A stretch of 64,000 nucleotides of DNA from an uncultured Bacteriovoracaceae bacterium (GCA_964572405.1 CAZNGL010000001.1:11553-75552); one strand, 5' to 3'. Positions 1,514 through 28,632 are shown, counted from the stretch's first letter. Program-made: numbers and translations. Notes: generated by a model from the letters alone, not told the origin.

Positions 1514-2272
1514 CTAGAGAACCTTGTCCAGGAAGGCCTTGACCCTGGGGTTGTCCATGCGGTCCGAGAAGACGTCCCCGGGCCTTCCCTCGAAGATGAA
1601 CCTGCCGTTGTCCATGAAGATGACCCGGTCGGCCATCTCCCGGGCGAACCCCATCTGGTGGGTGACGATGACCATGGTCATGCCCTCCTCGGCCAGGTTC
1701 TTGATCGCGCTGAACACCTCCCCCACGAGCTCCGGGTCAAGGGCCGATGTGGGCTCGTCGAAGAGCATGAGCCGGGGCCGCATGGCCAGGGACCGTGCGA
1801 TGGCCACCCGCTGCTTCTGCCCGCCGGACAGGAAGGCCGGGTAGACGTGCTGCTTGTCAAGCAGGCCCACCCTGCCCAGCAGGTCAAGGGCGACAGCCTT
1901 CGCCTCCTCCCGCGGCTGCCTCTTCACCGTGACGGGCCCCTCCATGACGTTCTGCAGCACCGTCATGTGGGGAAAGAGGTGGAAGTGCTGGAAGACCATG
2001 CCGATCTCACTGCGCAGGGCGCAGATCACCGAAGGCTTCTCCAGAACGAGCCTGCCCCTTTTGTCCCTGCGGTAACCGGACTCTCTTCCGTCGATGAGTA
2101 TCCTGCCCCCGTCGATCTTCTCGAGGAAGTTGATCATCCGGAGGAGGGTGGTCTTGCCCGAGCCGGACGGTCCGATGATGACGATCCGCTCCCCCTGGTC
2201 GATCTTCAGGTCCACCTGATCCACGGCCGTGAAATCGCCGAAGCGCTTGAGCACACCCTGCAGCTCTATCAT
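1514..2272 (-). CDS. ABC transporter ATP-binding protein (polar amino acid uptake family, GlnQ/HisP-like)
   Basis: Walker [13 protein letters not shown] signature [15 protein letters not shown], Walker [11 protein letters not shown]. It forms an operon with the permease and the substrate-binding protein. Confidence 0.9.
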
Positions 2273-3327
2273 CGGTTCTCATACACCCCCAGTCGGTCTT
2301 CGAGTTTCCTGAACGATACGGTGAAGATGCTCGTGAGCGCCAGGTAGACCAGCGCGGCCTGGAAGAGGATGAACACGTTGAAGGTGGCGCTGTAGATCTG
2401 GTTGGCCGCACGCATGAGCTCCACCATGGCGATGGTGGAGACCAGGGCCGTGTCCTTTATGAGCGCGATGAACTCGTTGCCCACGGGCGGCACGAGGCGC
2501 TTGTAGGTCTGGGGGATGATGACCCTGCGCATGGCCTGCCAGTGGGTCATGCCCAGGGACTTGGCGGCCTCCATCTGGCCCGCTTCAATGCTCTCGATGG
2601 CGCCCCGCATGATCTCGGCCAGGTAGGCCGAGTAGTTGAGCCCGAGTCCCAGCACGGCAGCGGGAAAGGGATCCAGGGTGACGCCCAGGGACGGCAGCCC
2701 GTAGTAGATGAAGAAGAGCTGGAGCAGCAGCGGCGTGCCCCGGAAGATCCAGATGTAGCACCAGAAGAACCCGGAGAGCATCTTCATGCGGCTGATCCGG
2801 CCAAGGGCGATGAAGAGGCCTCCCACGGGCGAAATGAGCATGGTGATGAGCACCAGGACGAGCGTCATGCCCGTTGCCTTCACCAGGGTGGGCATGAAGA
2901 CCTTCATGTCCTTGAGAAACCTGATCCACCTGGGCGTCTGAGTGGCCTGGATCTCGCCGAGAAGGTTCCTGGCCTCAAGGTTGTCGGGCAGCAGGGCCAG
3001 GACCTCATGGCACAGCGCGGAAGCGGCTGCATAGTCCTCCGTGCTCAGGAGGATCTTTGCGGCCTCGACCCGTGACCGGACAAAGACACCCGCATCCTCA
3101 CCGCGCTGAGGCGCCGGGATCGACATGAACACCTTCACCGCGTCGTCCAGCCGGTCCTCCTGGACCAGGGCGGTGGCCTCTGCCAGCAGCTCGTACTGGT
3201 CGGCGGGCTCGGCGGCACCGGCCCGCGAGGCGGTGATGGAGAGGATGAGGAGCAGGAGGCCCAGCGCCCAGGAACGTGCGCAGGGCCTCCCGGTGCCGAT
3301 GACGCTACTTCCAGGACGTGATGTCAT
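2269..3327 (-). CDS. Amino acid ABC transporter permease (HisM/GlnP family) with a ~130-aa N-terminal signal/TPR-like periplasmic extension
   Basis: The C-terminal ~220 aa carries the permease EAA-like region ([16 protein letters not shown]). The N-terminus has a hydrophobic segment [18 protein letters not shown] followed by a helical Ala/Leu-rich segment. It overlaps the ATPase gene by 4 nt. Confidence 0.8.
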
Positions 3328-4102
3328 CCCCGAACCACTTGACGGAGATCTTCTTCATGGTGCCGTCCTTGAACATGCCGTCCAGTGCCTGTTGGATCTT
3401 GTCCTTCAGCTCTCCATCCTCCTTCCTGATGCCGATGCCGATGGGCTCGGAGAGAAGCTCTTCCCTGAGCACAGTGTACTCGCCGGGCTTGGTGGAGAGG
3501 TAGTAGCGCCCCACGAGCTCGTCCACGGCCAGGGCGTCGATCCTGCCGATCTTGAGGTCCATGAAGGCGTCCGTGTTCTTGTCGTACTTCTTGATCTCCT
3601 TGAACTTCCTGTTCAACTTTGCCAGGGCCTCCTCGGAGGTGGAGCCGAGCTGCACGCCCACCACGGTTGCCTCGCCGAGATCCTTGAGCCCTTTGATCTT
3701 CGTGCCGCCCTTCTTCACCACCACCACCTGCTTCTCCATGATGTAAGGCCTGGTGAAGGCGATCTCCTTCTCGCGCTCGGCCGTTATGGACATGCCGGAC
3801 CACACGATGTCGAACTTCTTGCTCTTGAGCGACAGAACCACGGTGTCCCACACGGTGGGGATGTGCTCCGCCTTGATGCCCAGGCGTTTTGCCAGCTCCC
3901 TGGACGCGTCGATGTCGAACCCCACGAGCTCGTTCTTCTCGTTGCGGAACTCCATGGGCGGGAAGGCGTCGTCGATGCCGATGGTGAGCTTGCCCGCCTT
4001 CTTGACCCGCTCCCAGGAGCCGTCGCCCGCGGCGTTTGCGTTCACGGTGAACACGATGGCCAGGACGGTCATGACCACAACAGTCAACAGGTTCTTCTTC
4101 AT
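3305..4102 (-). CDS. Amino acid ABC transporter substrate-binding protein (periplasmic, family 3)
   Basis: Signal peptide MKKNLLTVVVMTVLAIVFTVNANA. Downstream motifs are typical of polar amino acid SBPs (LTIGIDDAFPPMEF, DIVWSGMSIT). The start was chosen at an internal ATG with a signal peptide rather than the track start. Confidence 0.85.
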   Translation of the reverse strand: MKKNLLTVVVMTVLAIVFTVNANAAGDGSWERVKKAGKLTIGIDDAFPPMEFRNEKNELVGFDIDASRELAKRLGIKAEHIPTVWDTVVLSLKSKKFDIVWSGMSITAEREKEIAFTRPYIMEKQVVVVKKGGTKIKGLKDLGEATVVGVQLGSTSEEALAKLNRKFKEIKKYDKNTDAFMDLKIGRIDALAVDELVGRYYLSTKPGEYTVLREELLSEPIGIGIRKEDGELKDKIQQALDGMFKDGTMKKISVKWFGDDITSWK

Positions 4103-4232
4103 TGCGGATTCCCCCTCGAAATGGATGGATTGGAAAGCGCCCACCATCTTACCAGAAACGGGGTGAAAAACAACCGTGCGGTTGGTCTGTTCATCCCCTG
4201 CGGCCCCGGAGATCGCCCCCCTGACTGGGAAC

Positions 4233-5279
4233 TCACGGGAGCACGATGATCCGTCCGGGGTCGCGGGCGGAGATCTCTCCCATGACCGCTGCTTCAGTGA
4301 TGCCCCGTGCGTGAAGCTGGGAGACGATACCCTCCGCCTGGTTCGCCGGGATGGCGATGAGCAGACCGCCCGAGGTCTGCGGGTCGTAGAGCGCCATCCT
4401 GAGGTCGTCGCCCACGCCCTGGCTCACCTCCACCATGGCTTTGCGGAAGCCCTCGTTCCGGTACGCGCCGGCAGGGATGAGCCCCATGCCCGCATACTCG
4501 ATCGCCTCCGGGAAGATCGGGACCCGCGACGAGAAGATGCGCATGCCCACGCCGGTACCCTCGATCATCTCGCAGGCATGACCCAGGAGCCCGAAGCCAG
4601 TGATGTCGGTGCAGGCATGCACGTCGTAGCCCGCCATGACCTCGGCGGGGATGCGGTTCAGCATCTTCATGGAGGAGACGACCTTCTGCTCCACCGCGGG
4701 GTCGGCCATCTCCCCCTTGACGGCGGTGGCGATGATGCCCGTGCCCAGGGGCTTGGTGAGGACAAGTGCGTCACCGGGCCTTGCCCCTGTGTTCTTCAGC
4801 ACCTTCTCCGGGTGCACCATGCCGGTGACGGACAGGCCGTACTTGATCTCCCTGTCCTCCACGCTGTGGCCTCCCACCAGCAGGACCCCGGCCTCCACCA
4901 TCTTGTCCATGCCGCCACGCAGGACGGATTCAAGCACGGAGATGTCCATCTCCTTCACCGGAAAGCAGATGATGTTCATGGCGAGCTTCGGAACACCGCC
5001 CATGGCGTACACGTCGCTCAGGGCGTTGACCACGGCGATCTGGCCGAAGTCGTAGGGGTCGTCCACGATGGGCGTGAAGAAGTCCAGGGTGAGGATCAGG
5101 GCCAGTTCGTCCGAGACGCGGTACACCCCGGCGTCGTCCGGCCGGTCCATGCCCACCAGAAGGTTCGCATCGTGCATGACCGGGATGGAGCGCAGTGCCT
5201 GGTCCAGAACCTCCGGACCGATCTTGCAGGCTCAGCCTGCTCCGCTCACCGTTGTCGTCAGACGGATCTTGCTGTCCAT
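4233..5279 (-). CDS. selD: Selenide, water dikinase SelD (selenophosphate synthetase). A selenoprotein with an in-frame UGA (Sec) at codon 16.
   Basis: Translating the minus strand from ATG at 5277-5279 gives MDSKIRLTTTVSGAG-U-ACKIGPEVLDQAL..., with TGA at 5232-5234 in frame. This matches the conserved SelD N-terminal GxG(C/U)xCK motif. The track ORF (4233..5177) starts at a downstream Met and misses the N-terminus. Confidence 0.85.
5198..5231 (-). other. Candidate bacterial SECIS stem-loop immediately 3' of the selD UGA
   Basis: The mRNA after the UGA reads GCCUGCAAGAUC-GGUCCGG-AGGUU-CUGGACC. The stem GGUCC/GGACC (extendable) starts ~12 nt after the UGA and has a GGUU-containing apical loop, as expected for a bacterial SECIS. 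Confidence 0.4.
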
Positions 5280-5370
5280 GCATCCCCTTATACCTCATAC
5301 CTTTGAAGAATTCAAAATATGCATTCTTGTCATTGACCACAGCTCACGGCCGCGGGTAGAATGCAGGTTC

Positions 5371-6297
5371 ATGAACCGGGATACATTCAAATTCATCACC
5401 CTCCAGCAGCTGGAGGCCTTTGCCCGGCTCGTGGAGGAGCGGAGCTTCTCGGAAGCCGCCAGGCGGATGCTCCTCACCCAGCCCTCGCTGAGCAAGCACA
5501 TCAGGAACCTGGAGGACCTCGCCGGCTGCATCCTCGTCACCCGGAACAGGACCGGCGTCAGCCTGACGCCCGAGGGTTCCATCCTGTACGGGTATGCCAG
5601 GCGCATCCTGAGGCTTCGCGACGAGGCCCGGGAAAAGATAGAGCTTGCCAGGGAATCGGTTTCCGGACAGGTCTTCGCCGCCGCCAGCACCATCCCCGCA
5701 ACCTACCTCCTCCCCCCGGTGCTCACCGTGCTGCACAGGAACCACCCCGACATCAAGGTCCATGTAACCACGGGAGACACGGACAGCGTCATCCACATGG
5801 TCCTGGCCGGCCAGGCAGAGCTCGGTTTCATCGGCAGCCCGGTCCAGGACAGGAGGCTTATGAGCGAACCTGTCTGGGACGACGAACTCGTCTGCGTGGT
5901 CCATGCCGGACACCCCTGGGCCGCCTCCGGCGAGGCCGGCATGGCCGAACTCCTCCAGGAACCCTTCGTGGTCAGGGAAAAGGGCTCAGGCACGCGGGCC
6001 GTATTCGAACGGCACCTCCAGGCAGCCCATGCCAAGGGGCTCGAACGTTTGCACGTGGTGAGCGAGATGGGCTCCAGCGAGGCGGTGAAGGAGGCGGTCA
6101 TTGCCGGGCTCGGTGTCTCGTTCCTGTCCATCCACGCGGTGCGCCGCGAGATCGAGATGGGCATCCTGGTTCGGATCCGGATCCGCGGCATGGAGATCCG
6201 GCGCCCCTTTCACCTGATCCGGAAGCGGCAGCAGACCCTGCTGGTGCACCAGCAGCTGTTCGTGGACGCGGCAAAGGCATACCGCCCCCTGGCATAA
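5371..6297 (+). CDS. LysR-family transcriptional regulator (divergent from selD)
   Basis: N-terminal HTH region FITLQQLEAFARLVEERSFSEAARRMLLTQPSLSKHIRNLE, followed by a LysR substrate-binding domain. The start was set at ATG 5371 (MNRDTF...). The upstream part of the track ORF is out-of-frame junk. Confidence 0.85.
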   Translation: MNRDTFKFITLQQLEAFARLVEERSFSEAARRMLLTQPSLSKHIRNLEDLAGCILVTRNRTGVSLTPEGSILYGYARRILRLRDEAREKIELARESVSGQVFAAASTIPATYLLPPVLTVLHRNHPDIKVHVTTGDTDSVIHMVLAGQAELGFIGSPVQDRRLMSEPVWDDELVCVVHAGHPWAASGEAGMAELLQEPFVVREKGSGTRAVFERHLQAAHAKGLERLHVVSEMGSSEAVKEAVIAGLGVSFLSIHAVRREIEMGILVRIRIRGMEIRRPFHLIRKRQQTLLVHQQLFVDAAKAYRPLA

Positions 6298-6440: not shown

Positions 6441-7592
6441 ATGTCCCCAGATACCATCCATGTCGACTACCAGGAACTCAAGCGGTTCATGAAAGAGGGC
6501 TTCATGGCCATGGGGGTGCCCGAGGCCGATGCGAAGACCTGCTCCGAGGTGCTCATCGAGTCAGACCTGCGGGGGATCAAGTCCCACGGCATCGGCAGGT
6601 TCAAGATGTACATCGACCGCATGAAGGACGGCATCATCAGCCCCGTCTCCAGACAGACCGTCATCAGCGAGACCGAGAACACTGCGGTCATCGACGGGGG
6701 TGACAGCCTGGGCCACGTGGTGGCCAAACACGCCATGCAGCTCGCCATCGACAAGGCAAGACAGCACAACATCGGCATGGTGGCGGTGAGGAACAGCACC
6801 CACTTCGGGATCTGCGGCTACTACCCCTCCATGGCGGTGGCGAACAACATGGTGGGGCTGGCCTTTTCCAACGCCAGGCCGTCCGTGGCGCCGACCTTCG
6901 GGGTGGAACCGGTGCTGGGCACCAACCCCATCAGCTTCGGCGCCCCGTCCGACGAGGTCTACCCCTTCCTCCTGGACATCGCCACCTCCACCACCCAGCG
7001 GGGCAAGATCGAGGTCTATGCCCGCGAGGGTGCTCCCACGCCCAGGGGTCTCACCATCGACCTGCACGGCAACGAGCCCACGGACAGCAAGGCCCTGCTC
7101 AGGATGTTCGTGGACGGCACGGCGTCCCTGCTGCCGCTGGGCGGAGCAGGCGAGGAGCTTGGCGGCCACAAGGGCTACGGCCTGAACGTCATGGTGGAGA
7201 TCCTCTGCGCCGCATTCTCCGGAGGGAGCTTCGGCAAGGCCCTGAGCGGCATGGAGGGGGAGAAGCATATCCCGCACCGGCTCGGCCACTTCTTCGCGGC
7301 CGTCAATATCGAGAGTTTCGTTCCCATCGGGGTCTTCAAGGCCATCACCGGGGCCATCATGCGCGAGATCAGGTCGTCAAGGAAGGCGCCGGGCCACGAC
7401 CGGATCTTCCTGGCAGGGGAGAAGGAGTTCGAGATGATCGAGCGCCGCAGGCAGGAGGGCGTGCCGGTCAACAAGTCTCTCCAGGACATCATGATCGAAC
7501 TCAAGAGAGAGCTGGGGCTCGGGAGCTTCAACTTCCCTTTTTTCGCACATGAACACCATGCCCTACAGGGCGTTCAGCGCCTTTCTGCGTGA
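6441..7592 (+). CDS. Malate/L-lactate dehydrogenase family 2 (Ldh_2) oxidoreductase
   Basis: 383-aa product with Ldh_2-family hallmarks (IKSHGIGRFKMY, HFGICGYY, HKGYGLNVMVE) and balanced composition. Confidence 0.75.
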   Translation: MSPDTIHVDYQELKRFMKEGFMAMGVPEADAKTCSEVLIESDLRGIKSHGIGRFKMYIDRMKDGIISPVSRQTVISETENTAVIDGGDSLGHVVAKHAMQLAIDKARQHNIGMVAVRNSTHFGICGYYPSMAVANNMVGLAFSNARPSVAPTFGVEPVLGTNPISFGAPSDEVYPFLLDIATSTTQRGKIEVYAREGAPTPRGLTIDLHGNEPTDSKALLRMFVDGTASLLPLGGAGEELGGHKGYGLNVMVEILCAAFSGGSFGKALSGMEGEKHIPHRLGHFFAAVNIESFVPIGVFKAITGAIMREIRSSRKAPGHDRIFLAGEKEFEMIERRRQEGVPVNKSLQDIMIELKRELGLGSFNFPFFAHEHHALQGVQRLSA

Positions 7593-8460
7593 ACGTTTCG
7601 GCACGCGGGTCCGGAAGATCACCATTGACGCGGGCCTGACGTGCCCGCACAGGGACTCGGACCGGGGCGGCGGCTGCATCTACTGCAACTCCCTGGGCTC
7701 CGGCACCGGCGCAGCAGCCCGCGGCATGGGCGTACAGGACCAGATCGACGCCCGGATCCGGGCCGTGCGGCAGCGACATCACACAGGCGCCTTCGTCGCC
7801 TACTTCCAGTCCTTCTCCAACACGTACGCCCCGGTCCACGTCCTGAAGCCCCTCTACGACACCGTACTGCCCTACCCCGAGATCGTGGGCCTTGCCATCG
7901 GCACCCGGCCGGACTGCATCGATCAGGAGCGGCTCGACCTTATCGCAGGCTATGCGGACACACGCCTGGTCTGGATGGAGTACGGCCTGCAGTCCGGCAA
8001 CGACGAGACGCTGAAACGCATCAACCGGGGCCACGACGTGCAGGCCTTCGTGGACGCGGTGAACCTCACCGCAGGCTACCCGCTGCGCCAGTGCGCCCAT
8101 GTCATCCTGGGCCTGCCCGGCGAGGGTATGGAGGACTATGAGCGCACCGCGGGCCTGGTGAGCTCGCTTCCAGTGACGGACATCAAGATCCACCTCCTCT
8201 ACGTTGTCAGGGGAACGCCCCTGGAAGAGATGCTCAAACAGGGGGAATACCTGCCCCCCGGCATGAAGGACTATGCGCAGGCAGTGGCCCGCTTCATCGG
8301 ACTGCTCCGGGAGGACATCGTGGTCCAGCGCATCACCGGCGACCCGCACAGGGACGAGCTGGTGGAGCCGGGCTGGGCCCTGGACAAGGCCGCGGTGCGC
8401 GCCGCAATCCTGCGGGAGATGGCCGAGCGCGGCATCACCCAGGGCTCGCTGAGGGCATAG
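7549..8460 (+). CDS. Radical SAM protein, TIGR01212 (YhcC-like) family
   Basis: Motif GLTCPHRDSDRGGGCIYC is the TIGR01212-type Cys cluster. Size is ~300 aa. It overlaps the Ldh_2 3' end by ~40 nt; the alternative start is MPYRAF at 7558. Confidence 0.7.
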   Translation: MNTMPYRAFSAFLRERFGTRVRKITIDAGLTCPHRDSDRGGGCIYCNSLGSGTGAAARGMGVQDQIDARIRAVRQRHHTGAFVAYFQSFSNTYAPVHVLKPLYDTVLPYPEIVGLAIGTRPDCIDQERLDLIAGYADTRLVWMEYGLQSGNDETLKRINRGHDVQAFVDAVNLTAGYPLRQCAHVILGLPGEGMEDYERTAGLVSSLPVTDIKIHLLYVVRGTPLEEMLKQGEYLPPGMKDYAQAVARFIGLLREDIVVQRITGDPHRDELVEPGWALDKAAVRAAILREMAERGITQGSLRA

Positions 8461-8463
8461 ACC

Positions 8464-9411
8464 ATGAAGGCGTACGGCATGGAGTTCGCTAAAGGACTGT
8501 TCCTGGCCCCCCTGTCGGGCTACACGGACTGGCCCCTGCGCATGCTGTGCCGGGAGTTCGGCGCCGAGCTCTGCTACACCGAGATGATCAGCGCCGCGGG
8601 CCTGATACGCAACTCGAAGAACTCGCGGGCCCTGCTCGTGCGGCCTCAAGGCGATGCACCGCTCATCGCCCAGATCTCCACCAACTCGCCCCGGGACGCG
8701 GCCGAGGCTGCCGGGATCCTGCAGGATGCGGGCTTCGACGGCATCGACATCAACATGGGGTGCCCGGTGAAGAAGGTGGCCTCCAAGGGCGCCGGCGTGG
8801 CACTCATGACGGACCCCGACCTGGCCCTGCGCATCACCGGTGCGGTGATCAGCGCCGTGTCGGTCCCGGTGAGCGTCAAGATGCGCGCCGGGTGGGACAC
8901 GACCCGCCTGAACGCGGCCGAGCTGGCCGAATCGCTCGAATTCGCGGGCATCACCGCGGTCATCCTCCACCCCAGGACTCGGGGCGACATGTACCGGGGC
9001 ACCCCGCGGTGGGAGGTGTTCCGGGAGGTGAAGGAACGGGTGCGGGTCCCGGTGGTGGCCAGCGGGGACATCCGCTCCACCGACGACATCCGGTTCCTCG
9101 AGGGACTACATGCCGACGCCTGCATGATCGGCCGCGGCGCCATCGGAAGGCCCTGGATCTTCCGGGAGCTCGCAGGCGGTCAAGCGCCTGCGCCCCTGGA
9201 GCGGCGGGCCATCATGCTGAAGCACCTGGACTGGCTCTGCACCTGCCACGGCTCCAGGACCGGGGTGCTGCACATGCGGAAGTTCATCACCGGCTATGTC
9301 AGGGGCATGCGGGGCGCTGCGCACTTCCGCCAGGAGGCATGCCTGTTGGACAGCCCTGCCCTGGTTCAGGAGAGGATCAACGAGTTCTTCGACCAGGCGG
9401 AGCAGGAATAA
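8464..9411 (+). CDS. tRNA-dihydrouridine synthase (Dus family)
   Basis: Motifs LAPLSGYTDWPLRML, DINMGCPVKKV and KMRAGWD place it in the Dus family. Confidence 0.85.
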   Translation: MKAYGMEFAKGLFLAPLSGYTDWPLRMLCREFGAELCYTEMISAAGLIRNSKNSRALLVRPQGDAPLIAQISTNSPRDAAEAAGILQDAGFDGIDINMGCPVKKVASKGAGVALMTDPDLALRITGAVISAVSVPVSVKMRAGWDTTRLNAAELAESLEFAGITAVILHPRTRGDMYRGTPRWEVFREVKERVRVPVVASGDIRSTDDIRFLEGLHADACMIGRGAIGRPWIFRELAGGQAPAPLERRAIMLKHLDWLCTCHGSRTGVLHMRKFITGYVRGMRGAAHFRQEACLLDSPALVQERINEFFDQAEQE

Positions 9412-13910: not shown

Positions 13911-14005
13911 GTTCTTGTATTCATTGACAAACCAGGATCGATGTGGTTCACTCACCCTATACATCCAGTGCCATTGACCTTCTTGAAATACATGCGAGGT
14001 TGCCC

Positions 14006-14908
14006 ATGAAACAGCGAAACACGGTTCTGCTCATCGGGTTCTTCCTTCTCTTCACGGTCTCCACCATCCATGCCGGCGAGGTCATCACCGACGGCGAGCG
14101 CCAGTGGGCGAAGCAGGCCCTGGCCCAGGAACAGGCCCTGGAGGCAGCCCCTTCACCGAACACGGTGGCGGTGCTGTCCTTCGGCAACCCCTCGGCAGAC
14201 CCCGGGCTGGTGCCGCTCCAGAAGGGCTTCGCCTACCTGCTCATGACCGACCTGTCCCAGGTCCAGGGCATCACGGTGGTGGAGCGCGTCAGGCTCCAGG
14301 CTCTGCTGGAGGAGCTGAAGCTCGGCGCCTCGGGCCTGGTGGAGAAGGCCTCGGCCCCCCGGGTGGGAAGGCTCGCAGGCGCGGGCTACCTCGTGGGGGG
14401 AGACCTCTCCGGGAAGGACCGCTCCGGCCTGTCGGTCACCTCGGACGTGCTCCAGGTGAAGGACCAGAGCAGTCTGGGAAGGCCGTCTGCCGACGGGCTG
14501 CTGGAACAGGTCTTCGATCTTGAGAAGAAGATCCTCTTCGAGGTGGTGGACCTGCTCAAGATCAAGCTCTCCAAGAAGGAGCGGGAAAACCTCAAGCGGC
14601 CGCTCACCACCAGCTATCGGGCCCTGATCTATCTCTCCATGGGCCTCGACGCCAGCGACCGGGGCAACTACACCCGGGCCGACCTCTTCTACCGCAAGGC
14701 CCTGGCCATCGACCCCCAGTTCAGCCCGGCTGCCAGGGCCAGGGAAGAACTCCAGGCCATGAGGCTGGTGGCGGTGAACCCCCAGGCCTTTGCCATCCTG
14801 GCAAGGCAGGAGGAGCAGAACTCGTCCACTGATTCACTGCGCAGGGACGATTCGACCTTCCGCGAGTTCAGGCCACCCACGACCGGGCAGATCCGGGTGA
14901 CGTGGTGA
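14006..14908 (+). CDS. Secreted protein with a CsgG-like (curli channel lipoprotein-like) module and a TPR-like C-terminus
   Basis: Signal peptide MKQRNTVLLIGFFLLFTVSTIHA. Motif VVERVRLQALLEELKLGASGLV...GRLAGAGYLVGGDL matches the CsgG core IPLERQGLQNLLNERKI...AANIMVEGSI as recalled. The start was reset to ATG 14006, which has an SD. Confidence 0.5.
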   Translation: MKQRNTVLLIGFFLLFTVSTIHAGEVITDGERQWAKQALAQEQALEAAPSPNTVAVLSFGNPSADPGLVPLQKGFAYLLMTDLSQVQGITVVERVRLQALLEELKLGASGLVEKASAPRVGRLAGAGYLVGGDLSGKDRSGLSVTSDVLQVKDQSSLGRPSADGLLEQVFDLEKKILFEVVDLLKIKLSKKERENLKRPLTTSYRALIYLSMGLDASDRGNYTRADLFYRKALAIDPQFSPAARAREELQAMRLVAVNPQAFAILARQEEQNSSTDSLRRDDSTFREFRPPTTGQIRVTW

Positions 14909-14922
14909 GAGGGGGGTGAACA

Positions 14923-16872
14923 ATGCAGAACCCGTCGAATGAATGCCGTTCTCACAGCGCGTATACACGGCGTCCTTCCGTCCTTATCATGCTTGCCGCA
15001 TGCATCTCTTCCCTGCTCGCGGTCTCTTGTTCCGGAAGCGGCGGCTCGGACACCGGGAGCGTGGCCTTCACCATCAGGATGCCCCAGAGCCAGACACAGG
15101 CCTTTTCCAAGGCTGCACAGTTCCTCTGCCAGGAGTACGGCATCGCAACGGTTGAGGCCGTGGTCCTCGCATATGACGGAGAAACCGTGATGGGCAGGGG
15201 TGGCCCATGGCCCTGCGATGCCGGGGAAGGGATCGTATCGGGTGTCAAGGAGGGACAGAACTACACCCTCACCGTCAACCTGAGGAACAGGAGCGGCTCC
15301 ATCCTCTTTCGCGGCAGCATATCGGGGATCACCGTTGTTGCCGGCGAGATGACCGATGCGGGGACCATCGAGCCCACCAGCACCAACAGCCCACCTGTGT
15401 TCGTCCCCATGGAAAACCAGCAGGTGAATGCCCAACAGACGCTCACCTTTACCGTGCAGGCCACGGATATCGAGGATAACACACTAACATACAGCGCTGG
15501 ATCTCTGCCCTATGGCGCGTCCTTCAATCCTGACACCCAAACCTTCACCTGGACCCCGAACTCGGACCAGATAGGCTCCTACACCGTATTGTTCGAGGTC
15601 ACAGACGACGGCGTGCCTCAGTTGAACGATACCATGGAGGTTACCATCACCGTCGGCAATGCAAATCAGCCGCCGGTATTTGAAGCAATGACGAGCCAGC
15701 AGGTGTACGAGGGGCAGGAACTAAGTTTCACCGTCTCTGCGACAGACCCTGAGAATGATACCCTGACGTACAGCGTGGTGGAGCCCCCCACAGGGTCAGA
15801 ATTCGATCCGGATACCCAGACATTCTCATGGACCCCCGGCTACACCCAGTCCGGGACCCACACCGTGCAGTTCATGGTCACGGACGACGGCGTGCCCACT
15901 CAGAGCGACACCCTTTATGTCACCATTACCGTGATCAATGTGAACCGGGCCCCCGTTCTCCAATCCATAGGAACCCGTCACTTCACCCTGCTCGACGGAG
16001 GGTCCATAACGGTCTCCGCATACGACCCTGACGGGGACACCCTCACCTACGACATCGCCGGGATGCCTGAGCCTTATGGAGCTGGATACCTGCGAGGCAT
16101 GGCCATCGATCCGGGCACACATGTTTTCACATGGGATCCCGGCTCAGAGGATTATGGTCCCGGCGAGTACAAGGTTCTGTTCAGGGTAACGGACAACGGC
16201 ACCCCGCGGCTCAGCGACTACGAGTGGGTGACCATCCAGGTCTATGACTCTCCCACGGAACTCGATGGAGAGATGTTCCCGGTGCTGACCCATATCGGAA
16301 ACCGTCAGGTGTCTGTGGGCCAACTGCTCCAGTTCAGCGTCTCGGCAACGGATGCTGACCCTACCGCCACGGTGCAATATTATGCCAACACCATTTACGG
16401 GAAGACATATCCCACCGGGGCTTCATTGAGCGCGGGGATCGTACCTCCTGTCTTTACCTGGTCCAATCCGACCCCTGCCGGAAACTACTGGGTGCGTTTC
16501 GTGGCCAACGACAACCACGATGTCTACAACCAGCAGCAGGTGTTCGAAGATGTGGTGATCACCGTGGGCGGTGTAAACAGACCCCCGACGCTGGACCCCA
16601 TCGGTGCACGGCGCGTGGTGAGGGGGGAGTCGATTCAATTCATCGTCACTGCCACGGATCCTGAAAACGGCGCTCTCACCTTTACCGCACAGGGAGTTTT
16701 CAATCTGGATCCGATTGCTCTGCCGAGCGGGGCGTCCCTCAACCAGACGACAAAGGTCTTCACCTGGAACACCCTGGCCGATGAGCCCTATGGCTACCAG
16801 ACGATCCGCATTACGGTCACCGATGCTCAAGGGGAAAGTGATTATGAAGATATCCAGGTGCTCCTATACTAG
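14923..16872 (+). CDS. Lipoprotein made of about six tandem ~95-aa cadherin-like / putative-Ig (He_PIG-like) repeats
   Basis: Lipobox LLAVSC. The repeat unit NxPPVF...Q.V.EGQ.L.FTV.A.DPE.D.LTYS...P.GA.FD.DTQTF.WTP...Q.G.Y.V.F.VTD.G.P...D...VTITV.NVNR.P recurs about six times. The N-terminal domain has two Cys. Confidence 0.7.
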   Translation: MQNPSNECRSHSAYTRRPSVLIMLAACISSLLAVSCSGSGGSDTGSVAFTIRMPQSQTQAFSKAAQFLCQEYGIATVEAVVLAYDGETVMGRGGPWPCDAGEGIVSGVKEGQNYTLTVNLRNRSGSILFRGSISGITVVAGEMTDAGTIEPTSTNSPPVFVPMENQQVNAQQTLTFTVQATDIEDNTLTYSAGSLPYGASFNPDTQTFTWTPNSDQIGSYTVLFEVTDDGVPQLNDTMEVTITVGNANQPPVFEAMTSQQVYEGQELSFTVSATDPENDTLTYSVVEPPTGSEFDPDTQTFSWTPGYTQSGTHTVQFMVTDDGVPTQSDTLYVTITVINVNRAPVLQSIGTRHFTLLDGGSITVSAYDPDGDTLTYDIAGMPEPYGAGYLRGMAIDPGTHVFTWDPGSEDYGPGEYKVLFRVTDNGTPRLSDYEWVTIQVYDSPTELDGEMFPVLTHIGNRQVSVGQLLQFSVSATDADPTATVQYYANTIYGKTYPTGASLSAGIVPPVFTWSNPTPAGNYWVRFVANDNHDVYNQQQVFEDVVITVGGVNRPPTLDPIGARRVVRGESIQFIVTATDPENGALTFTAQGVFNLDPIALPSGASLNQTTKVFTWNTLADEPYGYQTIRITVTDAQGESDYEDIQVLLY

Positions 16873-16896
16873 GTTTTTCTTGAATGAGGTAACGCT

Positions 16897-18021
16897 ATGA
16901 TCCTCCGACTCTGTTACGCCATGATCCTGGTAACGCCCCTCCTGGTCTCACCTGCCCTTGCCCTGGAAAAACAGGCCGCGGGCGGCGTCCTCTTCTCCTG
17001 GTGGCAGGACGACAGCGACGACTCGGGCACCCAGATCGCCATCCCCATCAGGGCCGGCCTCACCTACGGCCAGATCAAGGCGCAGATCCTGAACGCCTAC
17101 GTGTCCACCTCGGTGGACATGGACGAGGGCGGGTCAGAGTCCATCAGCGGGTTCGTGGACACCAAGGTGAACGTGTCCTACACCCTGGAGAGGACCATGG
17201 GCATGGACGTCCTGGCGGGGCTCGGCCTCAACCTCCCCACCGGCCAGACCGACTTCTCCGCAGGCGAACTCGTCCTCACCGCCCTGCCCCCCGAGTTGCT
17301 GCCCATAACCTCCTATGGCGAGGGGTTCAATGTGAATCCCTATCTGGCCGTGTCCAGGGAATGGGAACGGGCCGCCGCGGGGTGCGGGATCGGCTACCTC
17401 TGGCGGGGCGAGTACGACTACAGTGAGCTCATGCCCGAGTTCGACCCGGGGGACGTGATCACGCTCACCGCAGAGGGCCGCTACAGCCACACCGACTACT
17501 TCCAGTCGCGGGTGTTCGCCCAGTATGCCACCTACGGCAAGGACAGCATCGATGGTGAAGACTACTCCAAGGACGGCCCCCTCATGCTCTTCGGCCTGGG
17601 CGGCACCTGTTCCAGATCCTCATGGCAGCTCGATGCGGACCTGTACGGGATATTCAGGGGCAAGACCAAGTACTACGTGGAGACCGCCACGCCCATCGAC
17701 GACGAGAAGAACTACGGCGACGAGTTCCGCGCCGATTTCCTGTACCGGTATTTCCTCACCTCCACCCTCACGCTGAAGTCCTCCCTGGGCTTCCTCACCA
17801 TGGGCGAGAACGGGTATGACAAGGACACCGGGTTCTATGCCGGCGGCAGGCAGAAGATCTCCCTTGGGTTCGGCGCGGAAAAGGAATTCCCAGGGGGTCT
17901 GAAGGCGAACCTCGACCTGACCCTGTTCACTCTAAAGGAAAAGGAGAACTTCTTTCACACCGATGATGACCTGACCTTTACCGGCATTCTGATGAGCGGG
18001 GGCTTGCAAAAGACCTTCTAA
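16897..18021 (+). CDS. Predicted outer-membrane beta-barrel protein (signal peptide, C-terminal aromatic residue)
   Basis: Signal peptide MILRLCYAMILVTPLLVSPALA. Many alternating hydrophobic/polar strands (LKANLDLTLFTL, ISLGFGAEKEF). It ends ...GGLQKTF with a terminal Phe, as OMPs do. Asp/Gly/Tyr-rich loops. Confidence 0.5.
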   Translation: MILRLCYAMILVTPLLVSPALALEKQAAGGVLFSWWQDDSDDSGTQIAIPIRAGLTYGQIKAQILNAYVSTSVDMDEGGSESISGFVDTKVNVSYTLERTMGMDVLAGLGLNLPTGQTDFSAGELVLTALPPELLPITSYGEGFNVNPYLAVSREWERAAAGCGIGYLWRGEYDYSELMPEFDPGDVITLTAEGRYSHTDYFQSRVFAQYATYGKDSIDGEDYSKDGPLMLFGLGGTCSRSSWQLDADLYGIFRGKTKYYVETATPIDDEKNYGDEFRADFLYRYFLTSTLTLKSSLGFLTMGENGYDKDTGFYAGGRQKISLGFGAEKEFPGGLKANLDLTLFTLKEKENFFHTDDDLTFTGILMSGGLQKTF

Positions 18022-18124
18022 TATGATATAATATGTAGTAATAATCCGTTGCTCGTCTGGCGGGAACTACCGGGGTCCGGAACACGTGACCGGCCGAGGC
18101 CGCATCATGACACAACGAGGATGA

Positions 18125-20086
18125 GTGATGGGAACGAGAGGAAAGCCGACATCCAGACCTGAAGGCGACCATGCCCCGTGTTGCCCGGTTTTTTTGCGCA
18201 TTTTCGCAGCACTCCTGTTCCTTCTCCTCCTCGGCGCCTGCAGCCAGCGCGATGACTCTTCCGGCACCGGCGGCATCACCTTCACCATCAACCCTCCGGC
18301 GGATTACGTTTCTACCAAGGCAGCAGTGTTCCCGTGCGACGAACTGCACATCGTCACGGTCCAGGCCGAACTCTTTGATTCGGCAGAGAGCCTCGTCGTG
18401 TCCAGCGAACCCTGGGAATGCGGCTCCGGCCAGGGCATGCTCCCTGACATCAGACCGGGCGAGGGATATACCCTGGTCATCTCCCTCATGAACGAGCAGG
18501 GCGCTGTGCGCTACCGCGGTACCAAGGACGGCCTGCGGGTCCGCATGGGCAGGATCACCGATGCCAGGGGCATCGACCTGGAGAGGCTCAACCTGGTCCC
18601 GGTCTTCGAGGAAATCGAGGCCAAGGAGGTCAGGGCCGGGCAGACCCTGGAGTTCAGGGTGAACGCCGTCGACCCGGACGGAGACCCCATCACCTACTCC
18701 GTCCTTTCCCTGCCCGAAGGCGCGTCCTTCGACCCTGGAACCGGCCGCTTCTCCTGGACCCCGTCGAACAGCCAGTCAGGCGTCTACCTGGCCAGCTTCC
18801 AGGTGAACGACGAGTTCGACGAGCCTGACGCCGATGTCCTGGAGGTGTACATCGTGGTCACCGGGCCCAACCTGCCGCCCGAGTTCGATACCTTAAGGAC
18901 GCAGCGGGTCCAGGAGGGACAGTCCCTGAGGTTCACGGTGCAGGCATCCGACCCGGATGGCGATGCCGTGACCTACCGGGCCGTATCGTTGCCCCCTGGA
19001 GCGTCTTTCAACACCACCACGGGCCTCTTTTCTTGGAGGCCCGGCTACACCCAGGCACGGACCTATGTCATCCGGTTCGAGGCCACGGACGACAGCAATC
19101 CCCCGCAGACCTCATACCTGGACGTGACCGTCGTGGTCACGAACACCAACCGTTCCCCCGTGGTGGATGTCCCTGAGGGGATCCAGCGGGTGGGCACCAC
19201 CGGGACCCTGCAGTTCACCGTATCAGCGACGGACCCCGACGGGAACTCCCTGACCTTTGCAGCGGCGAACCTGCCCAGGGATCCCTACGGCACCTATTTC
19301 CCGGGCGTGGCCTTCGACGAGGCCACCGGGTCCTTCCGGTGGGTCGCGCCGGGTCCGGCCGCGGTGGGCGAGTACCACGTCCTGTTCATCGTCACCGACT
19401 CGGGCAGTCCTGCACAACGCGTCTACCGGACAGTCACCATCCTGGTCTACGACGACGTGCTGCCCCGCCGGTACCCGGTGCTCGCCGCCATCGGCCCCAG
19501 GCAGGCAGATCCCGGCGAAGAAGTGCGATTCACGCTCAGCGCCTCTGACCCGGACTACCCCGATGGCGGCCTGGATTCCCTGGACTTCAGCATGGAGCCC
19601 ATCCCGGGGTATGACTTCCCGAATGGGGCGTCCATAAACAACCTCTCCCGGGAGTTCAGCTGGGACGCCCTGGAACAAGGCAACTACCGGGTGCGCTTCA
19701 GGGTGAGAGACCCCGGCGACCCCGCATACATGTCCGACCACGAGGACGTGGTGATCACCGTGGGCAGCGTGAACCGGCCTCCGGTGCTGGAACCCATCGG
19801 CAACCGGGTGGTATTCAACCGCAACACAATAGAGTTCCCTGTCTTCGCCACGGATCCCGACGCAGGTGATACCCTCACCTACAGCGCGGACGGCCTGCCT
19901 GAGGGCGCAACCTTCGATGCGGCCGCGCATACGTTCTCCTGGACACCCTGGTACTACGACGACAAACCCCTGGGAGCCAAGTGCATCCCGCCCCTGACCG
20001 TGACCGTGAGGTTCTGGGTCCATGACAGCGGTTCACCCCGGGAGAGCGACTACGAGGACGTCCAGATCACGGTGTTCTTCGAATGA
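18125..20086 (+). CDS. Paralogous lipoprotein with ~6 cadherin-like/He_PIG-like tandem repeats
   Basis: Lipobox LLLGAC. The repeat architecture and two-Cys N-terminal domain match the 14923..16872 product (e.g. NLPPEFDTLRTQRVQEGQSLRFTVQASDPDGDAVTYRAVSLPPGASFNTTTGLFSWRPGYTQ). Confidence 0.7.
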   Translation: MMGTRGKPTSRPEGDHAPCCPVFLRIFAALLFLLLLGACSQRDDSSGTGGITFTINPPADYVSTKAAVFPCDELHIVTVQAELFDSAESLVVSSEPWECGSGQGMLPDIRPGEGYTLVISLMNEQGAVRYRGTKDGLRVRMGRITDARGIDLERLNLVPVFEEIEAKEVRAGQTLEFRVNAVDPDGDPITYSVLSLPEGASFDPGTGRFSWTPSNSQSGVYLASFQVNDEFDEPDADVLEVYIVVTGPNLPPEFDTLRTQRVQEGQSLRFTVQASDPDGDAVTYRAVSLPPGASFNTTTGLFSWRPGYTQARTYVIRFEATDDSNPPQTSYLDVTVVVTNTNRSPVVDVPEGIQRVGTTGTLQFTVSATDPDGNSLTFAAANLPRDPYGTYFPGVAFDEATGSFRWVAPGPAAVGEYHVLFIVTDSGSPAQRVYRTVTILVYDDVLPRRYPVLAAIGPRQADPGEEVRFTLSASDPDYPDGGLDSLDFSMEPIPGYDFPNGASINNLSREFSWDALEQGNYRVRFRVRDPGDPAYMSDHEDVVITVGSVNRPPVLEPIGNRVVFNRNTIEFPVFATDPDAGDTLTYSADGLPEGATFDAAAHTFSWTPWYYDDKPLGAKCIPPLTVTVRFWVHDSGSPRESDYEDVQITVFFE

Positions 20087-20092
20087 GAAAAG

Positions 20093-20118
20093 GGGCCCTG
20101 CGATAGTCCGCAGGGCCC
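20093..20118. terminator. Bidirectional rho-independent terminator between convergent genes
   Basis: Perfect 10-bp GC-rich inverted repeat GGGCCCTGCG-atagtc-CGCAGGGCCC. A T-rich run follows it on the minus strand (TTTTCTCATT) and a weaker one on the plus strand (GTTCGCCTTTC). Confidence 0.5.
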
Positions 20119-20181
20119 GTTCGCCTTTCAGGTACATCTGTGGGTCTCTTGAGATTTAGTGGCTGTTCGCTGCGGTAACTC

Positions 20182-20682
20182 CTATTCCGGGAACAGCAGG
20201 CTGCCTGCCTGGCGGGCGGCATCCAGCCACCCGGCAAAGTCCGATGAACCGGCGGTCTTCTTCACTGCGCCCATGACCCTGCCCGTTTCCACATCCACCC
20301 GTCTCAGGTCGATGCGCATGGCGGAGCCCACCACCATGTACCCCCCGAAGACCATCTCCCTGGCGCCCAGCATCCTGCCCACCCGCAGCCGCGTCTCCTC
20401 GTCTGCAAGCTCAGAGCTGCCGAGCCGGAGTTCCTCCATGACCGCGATGAGCCTGTCCCGCTCCACCACGGTGATGTCCCGTCTCGCCTGGAGGGTCTGG
20501 ATGATCTCGCCGGAAAGGACCTGGCCGAGGTCCGGCCGTGCACCCAGGGCCGGGCTCAGGTCCTCCAGGTCCCACACCGCCACGGCGCGGATCTCCTCAT
20601 GAACGGCCCCGGTGGTGGCACACCCGGTCACGCACAGGAGGCATGCCAGCGCACAGGCCGAAATCGCTAGGCGGCAGCGCAC
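20182..20682 (-). CDS. Lipoprotein with a CsgG-like module
   Basis: Lipobox LLCVTGC. Motif VVERDRLIAVMEELRLGSSELADEETRLRVGRMLGAREMVFGGYMVVGS...RIDLRRVDVETGRVMG parallels the CsgG motifs (ERQGLQNLLNE, GS-IIG, LRVVNVSTGEIL). Confidence 0.55.
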   Translation of the reverse strand: MRCRLAISACALACLLCVTGCATTGAVHEEIRAVAVWDLEDLSPALGARPDLGQVLSGEIIQTLQARRDITVVERDRLIAVMEELRLGSSELADEETRLRVGRMLGAREMVFGGYMVVGSAMRIDLRRVDVETGRVMGAVKKTAGSSDFAGWLDAARQAGSLLFPE

Positions 20683-20686
20683 CTCC

Positions 20687-22636
20687 CTACTCCCTCAGCG
20701 CCTGCTCGTCGAGCTTCTCGATGATCTTGTCGTCCCGGGTGATGGGCCTCGTCTGCTCCACGATACGGCAGTAGGCAAGCCCGGGTTCGGTCTTTGTCAC
20801 CTCGAGAAGGCCCACGTGGGTCGGGGCGGACCTGAGCTTCCGGCTCTTGTACTCCACCTCCCTGCCCTCCTCGATGACCTCGAACTTCGTCCCTGCCACC
20901 ACTCCCTGCTCTGACCCGAGGTTGATCATGACGCGGCCGTCCTTGACCTCCACCACGTAGGCCTTCAGGGGATGCTCCCTGATGACGGAGCCCAGGATCT
21001 GCCGGTTGATCTTGAACAGGTCTGCGCTCTGGGGGCCACCGGGCGCCATCTGCAGGGTGATCACCTTGTCCACTGCGGTGGTCTCGGTGTCGATGAGCCG
21101 CATGTTCAGCAGGGACCCTTCGGCCATGGTGAACAGGGTCCCGGTGCCCAGCACCCTGGCGGCGAGCACCCTGCCGAGCTTCAGGGAGGTCTCGGGGTCG
21201 GCGAGCTCCGAGGAGCCGAGGTTCAGCTCCTCCAGGAGCCTGTCCAGGAGGACGCGGTCCACCACCTTCACCCGGCCGGAGGCCTTGAGCTGTTCTGAGA
21301 GCTGGGAGGTGAGCACGGTGGCCATGCCGTCGCGCTCCGACAGGCCGCCCTGCTCCTGGAAGTCCACGAAGGAGACGACCACGGCCGGAGAAGTCCAGGT
21401 GTCCTCGGGCCTGGGCCGTTTCTGCTGCTCGCGGAACCGCTGAGCCAGCTCCTTCACCAGCTTGTCCACGCGTTCCCTGCGGGCGGTGTCCTGCTGGTAC
21501 CTGAGCCTCTCCATCGCCCTGGCCGCCAGGACCGCGGAGAACTCGTCCTGCCTGTTCACGCCCTGCCCCTGCTGGTACATCTCAAGGGCCTTGTCCCACT
21601 TGCCTTCCTTCTCAAAGGTGACGCCCTTGTTGGCCATGGCCTCCACGTTGTAGGGGTCCAGGGCCACGGCCTGGTCGTAGAGGCTCCGGGATGTCTGGTA
21701 GTCCTTCACGCTGGCATAGAGTCGGCCCAGTTTGTTGTATGCCACGGTCTTCTGGTAGGGCTCTGCCTCGTCCTTCTTCGTCGCGGCCTCGTACTCGTCC
21801 TGGGCCTCCTTCTTCCTGTTCTGGGCGTAGAGGATGTCCGCCTTCACCACGTGGGCATAGGAACGGTTCGGGGCCTTCTTCTGGACCTCTCCGGCAAGGG
21901 CCAGTGCCCTGTCGGCCTTTCCCTGCCGCGCATACACCGCCGCCAGGCCCTCCTTGCCGAGGATCTCGGCCTTGCCGGAGCCCCTGGCAAGCTTCGTGAA
22001 GGTCTTCTCCGCATCACTCACCTTGCCTGCCTTCAGGGCCGCGTACCCGCTCACCGCCAGTGCCTGGTCGTTGTCCGGGCTCTTCCTGGCCACCTCATTG
22101 CCGATGGCCATGGCGAGCGTAGTATCCTTCTGCTGGAGCTTGCGCTCGGCAAGGCGTACCAGCATGACGTTCGTGGTCTTGCCGCCGCCCTGGAACACGT
22201 CCATGACCTTGAGGTTCGGCCCGACGATATAGACCGCAGGGAGGATGGTCCCGGCGCTGTACAGCTCGCTCACCGACCCGGTGTCGAGGAGTATGGGGAA
22301 GGTGGGCTTGGCCGTGGATGCAAAGGCGCTGGCATACTCCCTGGGCGAACGGGTGATGCCCCACACGGAGAGGTTCTCACCCTTGTATTTCTTGGCGATC
22401 TGGTCCAGGCCCAGCAGCCCCTCCTGGGACGGCCGGGATGCCGCGTCGAAAAAGTAGAGCACCAGCATGGGGCTGGCCTTCATGGCGGCCAGATCGTGCG
22501 TCTTTCCCGAGAGGTCTTTCAGCGAAAAGGCAGGCGCTGCCTGTCCCGCTTTCAGGGCATGGACCGGCGGTGCTCCCACCGCGGCCATCGCCAGGGCCAG
22601 CACCAGGCATGGGGCAATGCGTTTGATATAGTTCAT
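20687..22636 (-). CDS. Secreted tri-domain protein: redoxin/thioredoxin-like fold (no CxxC), TPR repeats, C-terminal CsgG-like module
   Basis: Signal peptide MNYIKRIAPCLVLALAMAAVGAPPVHA and an SD before ATG 22636. The AhpC/TSA-like block LKDLSGKTHDLAAMKASPMLVLYFFDAASRPSQ lacks the catalytic Cys. The TPR-like middle contains YNKLGRLYASVKDYQTSRSLYDQAVALDPYN. The C-terminus VVDRVLLDRLLEELNLGSSELADPETSLKLGRVLAARVLGTGTL is CsgG-like. Confidence 0.6.
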   Translation of the reverse strand: MNYIKRIAPCLVLALAMAAVGAPPVHALKAGQAAPAFSLKDLSGKTHDLAAMKASPMLVLYFFDAASRPSQEGLLGLDQIAKKYKGENLSVWGITRSPREYASAFASTAKPTFPILLDTGSVSELYSAGTILPAVYIVGPNLKVMDVFQGGGKTTNVMLVRLAERKLQQKDTTLAMAIGNEVARKSPDNDQALAVSGYAALKAGKVSDAEKTFTKLARGSGKAEILGKEGLAAVYARQGKADRALALAGEVQKKAPNRSYAHVVKADILYAQNRKKEAQDEYEAATKKDEAEPYQKTVAYNKLGRLYASVKDYQTSRSLYDQAVALDPYNVEAMANKGVTFEKEGKWDKALEMYQQGQGVNRQDEFSAVLAARAMERLRYQQDTARRERVDKLVKELAQRFREQQKRPRPEDTWTSPAVVVSFVDFQEQGGLSERDGMATVLTSQLSEQLKASGRVKVVDRVLLDRLLEELNLGSSELADPETSLKLGRVLAARVLGTGTLFTMAEGSLLNMRLIDTETTAVDKVITLQMAPGGPQSADLFKINRQILGSVIREHPLKAYVVEVKDGRVMINLGSEQGVVAGTKFEVIEEGREVEYKSRKLRSAPTHVGLLEVTKTEPGLAYCRIVEQTRPITRDDKIIEKLDEQALRE

Positions 22637-22724
22637 GGTTTTCCTCCCTCCTTGATTTCCCGTCTCTAGTATTAAGGAATATCCCGCCGATGGCAAGATG
22701 CTCTTCCCTCTCAAACCATTTCCC

Positions 22725-26941: not shown

Positions 26942-26944
26942 GAG

Positions 26945-27916: not shown

Positions 27917-28632
27917 GCGATCCTCGCCAGTACCACTGTAACGTTGTCCTTTCCCCCGGCCGTCTTGGCGTCATCGATGAGCCGGCCCGCCATGTCCTTG
28001 AGTGCGAGGCCTTGCGCCATGCATCGGAGGATCCTGTTGTCATCGATCATATCGGACAGACCGTCCGAACACAAAAGGAAGATGTCCCCCGGCTGGCACC
28101 TGCCCCTGAGGATGTCGAGCTCCACGTGGTCCTTAGACCCGACGGCGCGGAGGATCACATGGCGCATGGCATGGGTGCGGGCCTCCTGTGCGCTGATGAT
28201 CCCCCTGTTCACCTGGTCCTGTACCAGGGAGTGGTCCACGGTGAGCTGCTTGAGCTCGCCTGTGCGGAGCCGATAGGTGCGGCTGTCGCCCACGTGGCCG
28301 ATGACCACCTCGTCTCCCCGGACCGCGAGTATTTCGGCGGTGCACCCCATTCCCGCATGGTCGGGATGCGCTGCCACATGCTGGAGCATCCGGGTGTTCG
28401 CCAGGGTGAAGGAGCGCTTCACCTTCTCCTCCAGGCCGGCCGCATCATCCTGATCGGTGAAGACCTCCACGCAGGTGTCCACGAAGATGCCGCTCGCGAT
28501 CTCTCCCGCAGCAGCGCCTCCCATGCCGTCGGCCACGGCGCAGAAGCCCAGGTCGGGCCGCGTCGCAAAGGCGTCCTCGTTGTTCGTGCGTTTCAACCCC
28601 ACATCACTCGCGCCGTAGTACTCCACCTTCAT
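27913..28632 (-). CDS. pppA: PP2C-family Ser/Thr phosphatase (PppA/Stp-like)
   Basis: SDVGLKRTNNEDAF, VADGMGGAAAGEIAS, LLCSDGLSDM and DNVTVVLARI motifs. Confidence 0.85.
   Translation of the reverse strand: MKVEYYGASDVGLKRTNNEDAFATRPDLGFCAVADGMGGAAAGEIASGIFVDTCVEVFTDQDDAAGLEEKVKRSFTLANTRMLQHVAAHPDHAGMGCTAEILAVRGDEVVIGHVGDSRTYRLRTGELKQLTVDHSLVQDQVNRGIISAQEARTHAMRHVILRAVGSKDHVELDILRGRCQPGDIFLLCSDGLSDMIDDNRILRCMAQGLALKDMAGRLIDDAKTAGGKDNVTVVLARIA

Follow-up and report, generated by a model that had tools for sequence, protein, structure and literature searches.

A very probable selenocysteine codon in the selD gene of an uncultured bacterium and the misannotation that follows from it

Introduction

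The Escherichia coli fdhF SECIS is the reference bacterial SECIS, bound by SelB. Among the prokaryotic families of proteins made with selenocysteine (Sec), that of selenophosphate synthetase, SelD, ranks second in how widely it occurs (PMC13188914). The Sec form accounts for 19% of prokaryotic selD genes, with Sec always at the position discussed here, and selenoprotein genes in general are usually misannotated (PMC4561486). Sec-SelD is found in nearly all selenoprotein-rich Deltaproteobacteria, examples being those of Syntrophus aciditrophicus, Syntrophobacter fumaroxidans and Desulfovibrio vulgaris (PMC1794560).

Here we examine a selD locus in the DNA of an uncultured bacterium. The window, by which we mean the whole stretch of DNA analysed, is 64,000 nucleotides long (64 kb), and all positions are counted from its first letter. 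An earlier note on this DNA had read selD as a selenoprotein gene, with a TGA in frame at codon 16, a SECIS-like hairpin just downstream and a start site that standard gene callers would miss. Every detail of that observation that could be checked was confirmed, and every testable part of its reading was supported.

Results

The selD reading frame extends upstream through an in-frame TGA

The open reading frame that mechanical annotation assigns to selD was found to continue upstream through the TGA at codon 16, and the coordinates and sequence given earlier for this extension both matched our translation. The features of the gene are as follows.

4233..5279, minus strand: full selD coding sequence, 348 codons including the predicted Sec16, plus a TGA stop at 4235-4233 (translation, TIGR00476 and alignment with E. 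coli SelD 3u0o)
5277..5279, minus strand: true selD start codon, ATG (the sole start between the upstream in-frame TGA and the Sec codon)
5232..5234, minus strand: in-frame UGA, codon 16, predicted to be read as selenocysteine (aligned with catalytic Cys17 of E. coli SelD; TGA in 77 related loci)
5175..5177, minus strand: internal Met35 codon, the wrong start used in the mechanical ORF and database gene calls (ORF list; database entry P0001, 314 aa)
5284..5289, minus strand: putative Shine-Dalgarno-like AAGGGG, 4 nt 5' of the selD ATG (read from the sequence)

On the minus strand the start of selD reads ...AAGGGGATGC-ATG GAC AGC AAG ATC CGT CTG ACG ACA ACG GTG AGC GGA GCA GGC TGA, and the codons that follow this TGA are GCC TGC AAG ATC GGT CCG GAG GTT CTG GAC CAG. 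Translation from 5279 gives MDSKIRLTTTVSGAG-TGA-ACKIGPEVLDQALRSIPVMHDANLL..., a frame that runs on without a break into the mechanical ORF (314 aa) at 4233..5177. Six codons 5' of the ATG lies another in-frame TGA (5297-5295), and since there is no start codon between the two, 5279 is the only possible start of selD. An ATG 15 codons 5' of the TGA is also present in many of the closest relatives (for example loci L002, L004, L005, L009, L013, L017, L018 and L021).

That the gene is selD, as had been proposed, was established with the curated equivalog model TIGR00476, which the 348-residue protein (with Cys put in place of the stop) passed at 387.2 bits against a cutoff of 125. The match covers residues 6-314 and so begins upstream of the TGA. 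The same protein scored 341.6 bits against NF002098 (cutoff 299), and AIRS and AIRS_C domains (PF00586 and PF02769) are precomputed for the exact SelD protein. In a search against solved structures, E. coli SelD (3u0o) aligned with residues 3-345 (E = 5e-73), and the SelD of Aquifex aeolicus (2yye) also aligned with the 348-residue protein. In the former alignment GAG-U16-A-C18-K19 of the protein described here is matched with GAG-C17-G-C19-K20, which sets the TGA opposite Cys17, and Lys19 opposite Lys20, in agreement with the earlier placement of the TGA at the site of the catalytic Cys or Sec. Established SelD enzymology treats Cys17 and Lys20 of the E. coli enzyme as essential. A protein started at Met35 lacks the residues that match them and is thus without the catalytic loop. 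Judged by this alignment, the 314-residue database product is a catalytically dead fragment, the true product being the predicted protein of 348 residues with Sec16.

The TGA and its flanking peptide are conserved, and homologues are stored without them

We collected related selD DNA from species-representative genomes, which yielded 80 loci, the best of them with 73% amino-acid identity, from Desulfomonilia/Thermodesulfobacteriota, Dehalococcoidia, Acidobacteriota and Actinomycetota MAGs. In 77 of these loci, among them that of Syntrophus aciditrophicus (L079), a TGA stands in frame at the corresponding position; the other three end at contig edges before reaching the region. The TGA context in the 77 loci is RLTxTVxGAG-TGA-A(C/S)K(I/L)GP. 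In the codons 5' of the TGA the amino acids are conserved while third positions vary freely; conservation of the upstream 15 codons as a peptide, with synonymous sites left free, is the signature of translated sequence. Two close relatives carry TGC (Cys) instead of TGA, within GAG-C-GCKIGP, and these are the two full-length homologues of the protein search described below. The orthologues therefore do not simply begin at the downstream Met, the finding that had been named as one that would count against the earlier reading: the N-terminal motif is kept with TGA in 77 loci and with TGC in two relatives.

A search of 5.8 billion proteins found the exact SelD protein stored only as the 314-aa fragment, and 118 of its 120 best homologues lacked the part N-terminal to the TGA. 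Of these 118, nearly all are 304-325 aa long and were called from a downstream Met; two 'partial' entries begin just after the TGA. This indicates a systematic truncation, as had been anticipated for the start of this gene, and means that public metagenome gene calls systematically leave out the catalytic loop of Sec-type SelD. In the present gene it is the first 34 codons that standard gene callers cut off, because the in-frame UGA would be read as selenocysteine.

A hairpin downstream of the UGA is under RNA-level constraint

A stem-loop about 12 nt after the UGA had been suggested from the sequence, and it was found at 5219-5201, beginning exactly 12 nt 3' of the UGA and folding with a free energy of -12.7 kcal/mol.

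5201..5219, minus strand: predicted SECIS hairpin, with 5' arm GGUCCGGA (5219-5212), loop GGU (5211-5209) and 3' arm UCUGGACC (5208-5201) (folding, recoding and covariation)

The hairpin, GGUCCGG(A)-GGU-(U)CUGGACC, has a stem of 8 bp and sits inside selD codons 21-27 (G-P-E-V-L-D-Q). The value of -12.7 kcal/mol was obtained for the local hairpin in context (z = -3.3 against shuffles), and the hairpin alone folds at -11.2 kcal/mol. Windows of 66 nt and 101 nt around the UGA were not significantly more stable than their shuffles; since the larger folds do no better than shuffled sequence, only the local hairpin is supported.

Its likeness to a SECIS, also proposed earlier, was borne out by comparison with the published bSECIS model (PMC13188914), in which the apical loop has 3-9 nt with a G among its first two positions, the upper stem has 4-16 bp, 16-37 nt separate the UGA from the loop, and the minimum free energy is -7.5 kcal/mol or lower. 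With its GGU loop (or A-GGU-U), 8 bp and a UGA-loop spacing of 20 nt, the selD hairpin lies within all of these limits. The limits are permissive, in that 174 of 1960 TGA trinucleotides (8.9%) pass them in this window of 64% GC. Such a rate makes hairpin criteria weak when used alone, which is why three further, independent tests were carried out. When the same model was implemented strictly and without gaps, only 39 of 77 relatives passed, the short AGGUC-CGGGA-GACCU type of hairpin falling just outside its energy and spacing limits, and for this reason too the bSECIS criteria are not our main argument.

When the peptide IGPEVLDQ was recoded synonymously 5000 times with the codon usage of this genome, only 0.16% of the recodings folded as stably (p = 0.0016). 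Across the 77 loci the codons that form the stem are nearly fixed: counted from the TGA, Gly+5 is GGT in 68 of 75, Pro+6 is CCG in 68 of 77, Asp+8 is GAC in all 52 and Asp+10 is GAC in 29 of 30. Codon entropy elsewhere in the same genes is 1.4-2.0 bits for Gly, 1.6-1.9 bits for Pro and about 0.95 bits for Asp, and it collapses at the stem codons. In an ungapped alignment of the 77 sequences, the pairing register of the window left 77% of cells paired, a share that was 11-61% in controls with the 3' arm slid, and the three innermost stem pairs were paired in 91-100% of sequences. Compensatory change was seen at two pairs, one from U-A to G-C (7 sequences) and one from G-C to A-U (21 sequences); these pairing and compensation counts are inflated by the relatedness of the sequences. 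The hairpin is nearly invariant in the window's own clade, so that the covariation signal comes mostly from more distant clades. Together, the recoding test, the synonymous constraint and the compensatory changes show RNA-level constraint on the hairpin.

A hairpin after the in-frame TGA is kept in all 77 related loci that reach the region. In other clades it takes the form AGGUC-CGGGA-GACCU or GGGCCRGG-GGA-CCUGGCCC, with a G-rich apical loop equally far from the UGA. The hairpin and the conservation evidence combined are not a matter of chance.

These data bear on the possibility that the gene is indeed a Sec-type selD in which the 5201-5219 hairpin is a by-product of the conserved Gly-Pro-Glu-Val-Leu-Asp codons, the real SECIS being a different or larger structure. 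Such an account could draw on the 8.9% of random TGA sites that pass the bSECIS criteria, on the alternative folds found in longer windows and on the half of the more distant relatives that fail the strict criteria. However, a by-product of the peptide would not be expected to be matched in stability by so few recodings of that same peptide, to suppress synonymous variation specifically at the stem codons, or to be rebuilt, its apical loop equally far from the UGA, in relatives that use other amino acids and codons there. We regard it as quite improbable and favour the local hairpin as the SECIS.

Two Cys-type relatives had been considered as a hairpin-negative control and were set aside, as both keep the hairpin: L081 (selD 1501-2568) carries AGGUC-CGGGA-GACCU at the SECIS position, and L082 (selD 1501-2544) a hairpin of -13.7 kcal/mol in which a GGA loop caps a 10-bp stem. 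The hairpin is thus not exclusive to UGA genes. The phenomenon is known: 'remnant SECIS-like structures downstream of Cys codons' have been reported, SelD being among the main families of Sec-to-Cys conversion (Zhang et al. 2006, PMC1794560), and the hairpins of L081 and L082 match that description.

Selenocysteine machinery and the genetic code

Annotation of the approximately 48 genes of the 64-kb window with Pfam and NCBIfam found no selA or selB. ARAGORN found no tRNA in the window and Rfam had no match at gathering thresholds anywhere in it, so selC is absent from this stretch. The earlier note had predicted selA, selB and selC elsewhere in the genome. Among the first 60 of the related loci, ARAGORN likewise detected no tRNA-Sec beside selD. 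The immediate neighbours of selD include selA and/or selB in three Sec-type relatives that are more distant (L049, L076 and L078), and selA and selB flank the selD of the Cys-type L082. Two screens of the window for other TGA-interrupted genes yielded nothing but spurious frames on the antisense strand and a junction between adjacent genes at 59982. No stop codon is more common in the window than TGA, which ends 24 of 46 genes; as an ordinary stop used this often, it indicates that the genetic code is standard and not reassigned.

The UGA might also be read through without Sec, by a near-cognate tRNA such as one for Trp or Cys, with the hairpin acting as a general enhancer of read-through. A mechanism of this sort has been suggested for the SPS1 UGA of Hymenoptera that lack selenoproteins, and enhancing stem-loops beside SPS UGA codons have been described (PMC4561486). 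Such an explanation would sit with a 64-kb window in which no Sec machinery was found, and with Cys-type relatives that keep the hairpin. Against it, we found no bacterial precedent, the hairpin agrees with the bSECIS model of the SelB type, down to the G-G/U motif in its loop, and selA and selB do stand beside selD in Sec-type relatives; read-through of this kind appears highly improbable. That the TGA is a genuine stop, leaving a pseudogene or a functional protein made from Met35 (5177), is extremely improbable, and conservation effectively refutes it: 314 aa is indeed the length of both the mechanical ORF and the protein on record in the database, TGA is the commonest stop in the window and Sec machinery is not seen there, yet the Met35 product would be without the counterparts of two essential E. 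coli residues, the 15 codons before the TGA are conserved as protein with synonymous sites free across 77 loci, the SelD HMM match starts at residue 6, and a nonsense mutation would not stay TGA across several phyla.

With decoding of the UGA as Sec preferred over these alternatives, the uncultured lineage is probably a selenocysteine user, marked as such by selD, and further TGA-interrupted genes would be expected elsewhere in its genome.

A divergent regulator and a downstream transporter

The gene divergent from selD had been described as a LysR regulator 91 bp away, and its coordinates agree with this. Its features and those of the genes 3' of selD are as follows.

5371..6297, plus strand: divergent LysR-family regulator, LysR_Se subfamily (Pfam HTH_1 and LysR_substrate; NCBIfam NF040786)
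5302..5316, no strand assigned: dyad TTTGAA-TTC-TTCAAA, containing T-N11-A, a candidate LysR binding site (read from the sequence)
1514..4147, minus strand: three-gene polar-amino-acid (cystine-like) ABC transporter, directly 3' of selD (Pfam)
3305-4147, 2269-3327 and 1514-2272, minus strand: its substrate-binding protein (SBP), permease and ATPase, in that order (Pfam)

The LysR gene begins at position 5371, which leaves 91 bp between it and the ATG of selD. Over residues 10-302 its product scored 264.2 bits (cutoff 250) against NF040786, the model for the selenium metabolism-associated LysR family transcriptional regulator, and this places it in the selenium-associated subfamily; the next best LysR model gave 189 bits, far below its own cutoff. 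The LysR_Se/HrsM subfamily was described by Lin et al. 2015 and is defined by its genomic context of Sec genes (PMC5322559). Like its described members, the regulator here passes the curated model and adjoins selD, the context that defines the subfamily; unlike them, it is found with selD alone, together with an Ldh_2-family gene and the ABC transporter, and not with selA/selB. The divergent arrangement of selD and the LysR gene is kept in about 18 relatives, and dyads comparable to that between the two genes (TTGAAT-N7-ATTCAA) are present in L013, L021 and L022. This LysR_Se-type regulator probably controls the selD locus. A sigma-70-like promoter, TTGACC-18-TAGAAT (window 5333-5362), faces the LysR gene.

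About 18 species-level relatives share the order Ldh_2 <- LysR <- | -> selD -> SBP -> permease -> ATPase, and the genomes with this conserved unit belong to an uncultured Desulfomonilia-related clade. The best NCBIfam matches of the transporter genes are of the cystine type, all below cutoffs. Between these genes and selD is a weak hairpin (4171-4184) that resembles a terminator. One might propose that the LysR_Se gene, Sec-type selD and the cystine-like transporter form a selenium-acquisition operon. If so, the transporter would import an organic selenium compound (selenocystine, for example) and feed SelD under the control of a selenium-sensing LysR protein. We consider this operon unlikely and the link of the transporter to selenium speculative; the selenium-metabolism papers that we consulted make no mention of an ABC importer that supplies selenium to SelD. 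The conserved linkage of selD and the LysR_Se gene to a cystine-like ABC transporter is the one mildly novel lead.

Other genes in the window

Downstream of the LysR_Se gene, 6441-9411 (plus strand) encodes an Ldh_2-family dehydrogenase, whose best match is L-sulfolactate dehydrogenase, below cutoff, and which is kept beside the LysR gene in the clade. Also encoded in this segment are a dihydrouridine synthase and MnmL/YtqA, a radical SAM protein of tRNA modification that exceeds the cutoff of TIGR01212. A cluster of genes for CsgG-like lipoproteins occupies 13943-22714, with a 675-aa AhpC/TSA-TPR-CsgG fusion protein and two paralogues of about 650 aa that carry He_PIG, Big_9 and cadherin-like Ig repeats.

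From 32585 to 61895, mostly on the minus strand, the window holds a complete type VI secretion (T6SS) cluster, unusual in a MAG of a Desulfomonilia-like anaerobe: VgrG, two DUF2169 proteins, ClpV, TssG, TssF, TssE, Hcp, TssC, TssB, TssA, ImpE, TssM, TssL, TssK and TssJ. A 501-aa protein encoded at 41761-43263 (minus strand) has a VipA (TssB) domain at residues 26-121 and a VipB (TssC) N-terminal domain at 200-487, and appears to be a fused second sheath paralogue besides the separate TssB and TssC at 50911-52935. At 37898-40956 are two convergent genes, 11 bp apart, for paralogous methyltransferases of about 507 aa (DUF7059 - MTS - DUF7782). Beside the secretion cluster, 25781-32149 encodes a Ser/Thr kinase with a PEGA domain, a trypsin-like protease, a PP2C phosphatase and two FHA-domain proteins, one of them fused to an SLT transglycosylase; this set resembles a PpkA/PppA/Fha threonine-phosphorylation control module.

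Discussion

Sequence evidence makes it very likely that selD in this window is a Sec-decoded selenoprotein gene with a functional-looking SECIS. The reading is carried by the observed frame, the homology of the product, the conservation of the TGA together with its flanking peptide, and the RNA-level constraint on the hairpin. Translation would begin at the ATG at 5279. At the UGA of codon 16, the hairpin 12 nt downstream would act as a bacterial SECIS and recruit SelB carrying Sec-tRNA(Sec), leading to the insertion of selenocysteine instead of termination. The predicted product, selenophosphate synthetase (selenide, water dikinase), has 348 residues and carries its Sec in a glycine-rich loop near the N-terminus, G-A-G-U-A-C-K. 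An enzyme of this kind would make selenophosphate from selenide in an ATP-dependent reaction and thereby provide the selenium donor for Sec synthesis, so that the synthesis of SelD would depend on its own product.

As Sec-SelD is a known and widespread family that is routinely misannotated, this is the correction of an annotation and not a discovery. Its main value lies in the correct annotation of the gene, and knowledge of selenoprotein biology is unchanged by it.

Compared with described systems, the gene is like the Sec-SelD genes of Deltaproteobacteria and Clostridia in having Sec at the same N-terminal position, a G-x-G-U-x-(C/A)-K loop and an intragenic SECIS just after the UGA. Aquifex aeolicus SelD (PDB 2yye/2zod) belongs to the same family and has the Sec position and SECIS arrangement seen here, whereas E. 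coli SelD (3u0o) has Cys (TGC/TGT) and needs no recoding. Like the E. coli fdhF SECIS, the selD hairpin is an intragenic stem-loop shortly after the UGA with a small G-G/U apical loop at a distance within 16-37 nt; unlike it, the hairpin shares no sequence similarity beyond the loop motif, has no bulged U evident in its upper stem, and is a predicted SelB-binding site. The protein differs from known Sec-SelD in that it is at most 73% identical in amino acids to that of any species-representative genome, and the 8 bp/GGU register of the hairpin and its loop are specific to the window's clade. With these differences, the Sec-selD of this uncultured, deltaproteobacterium-like genome is an ordinary and well-understood case of its kind.
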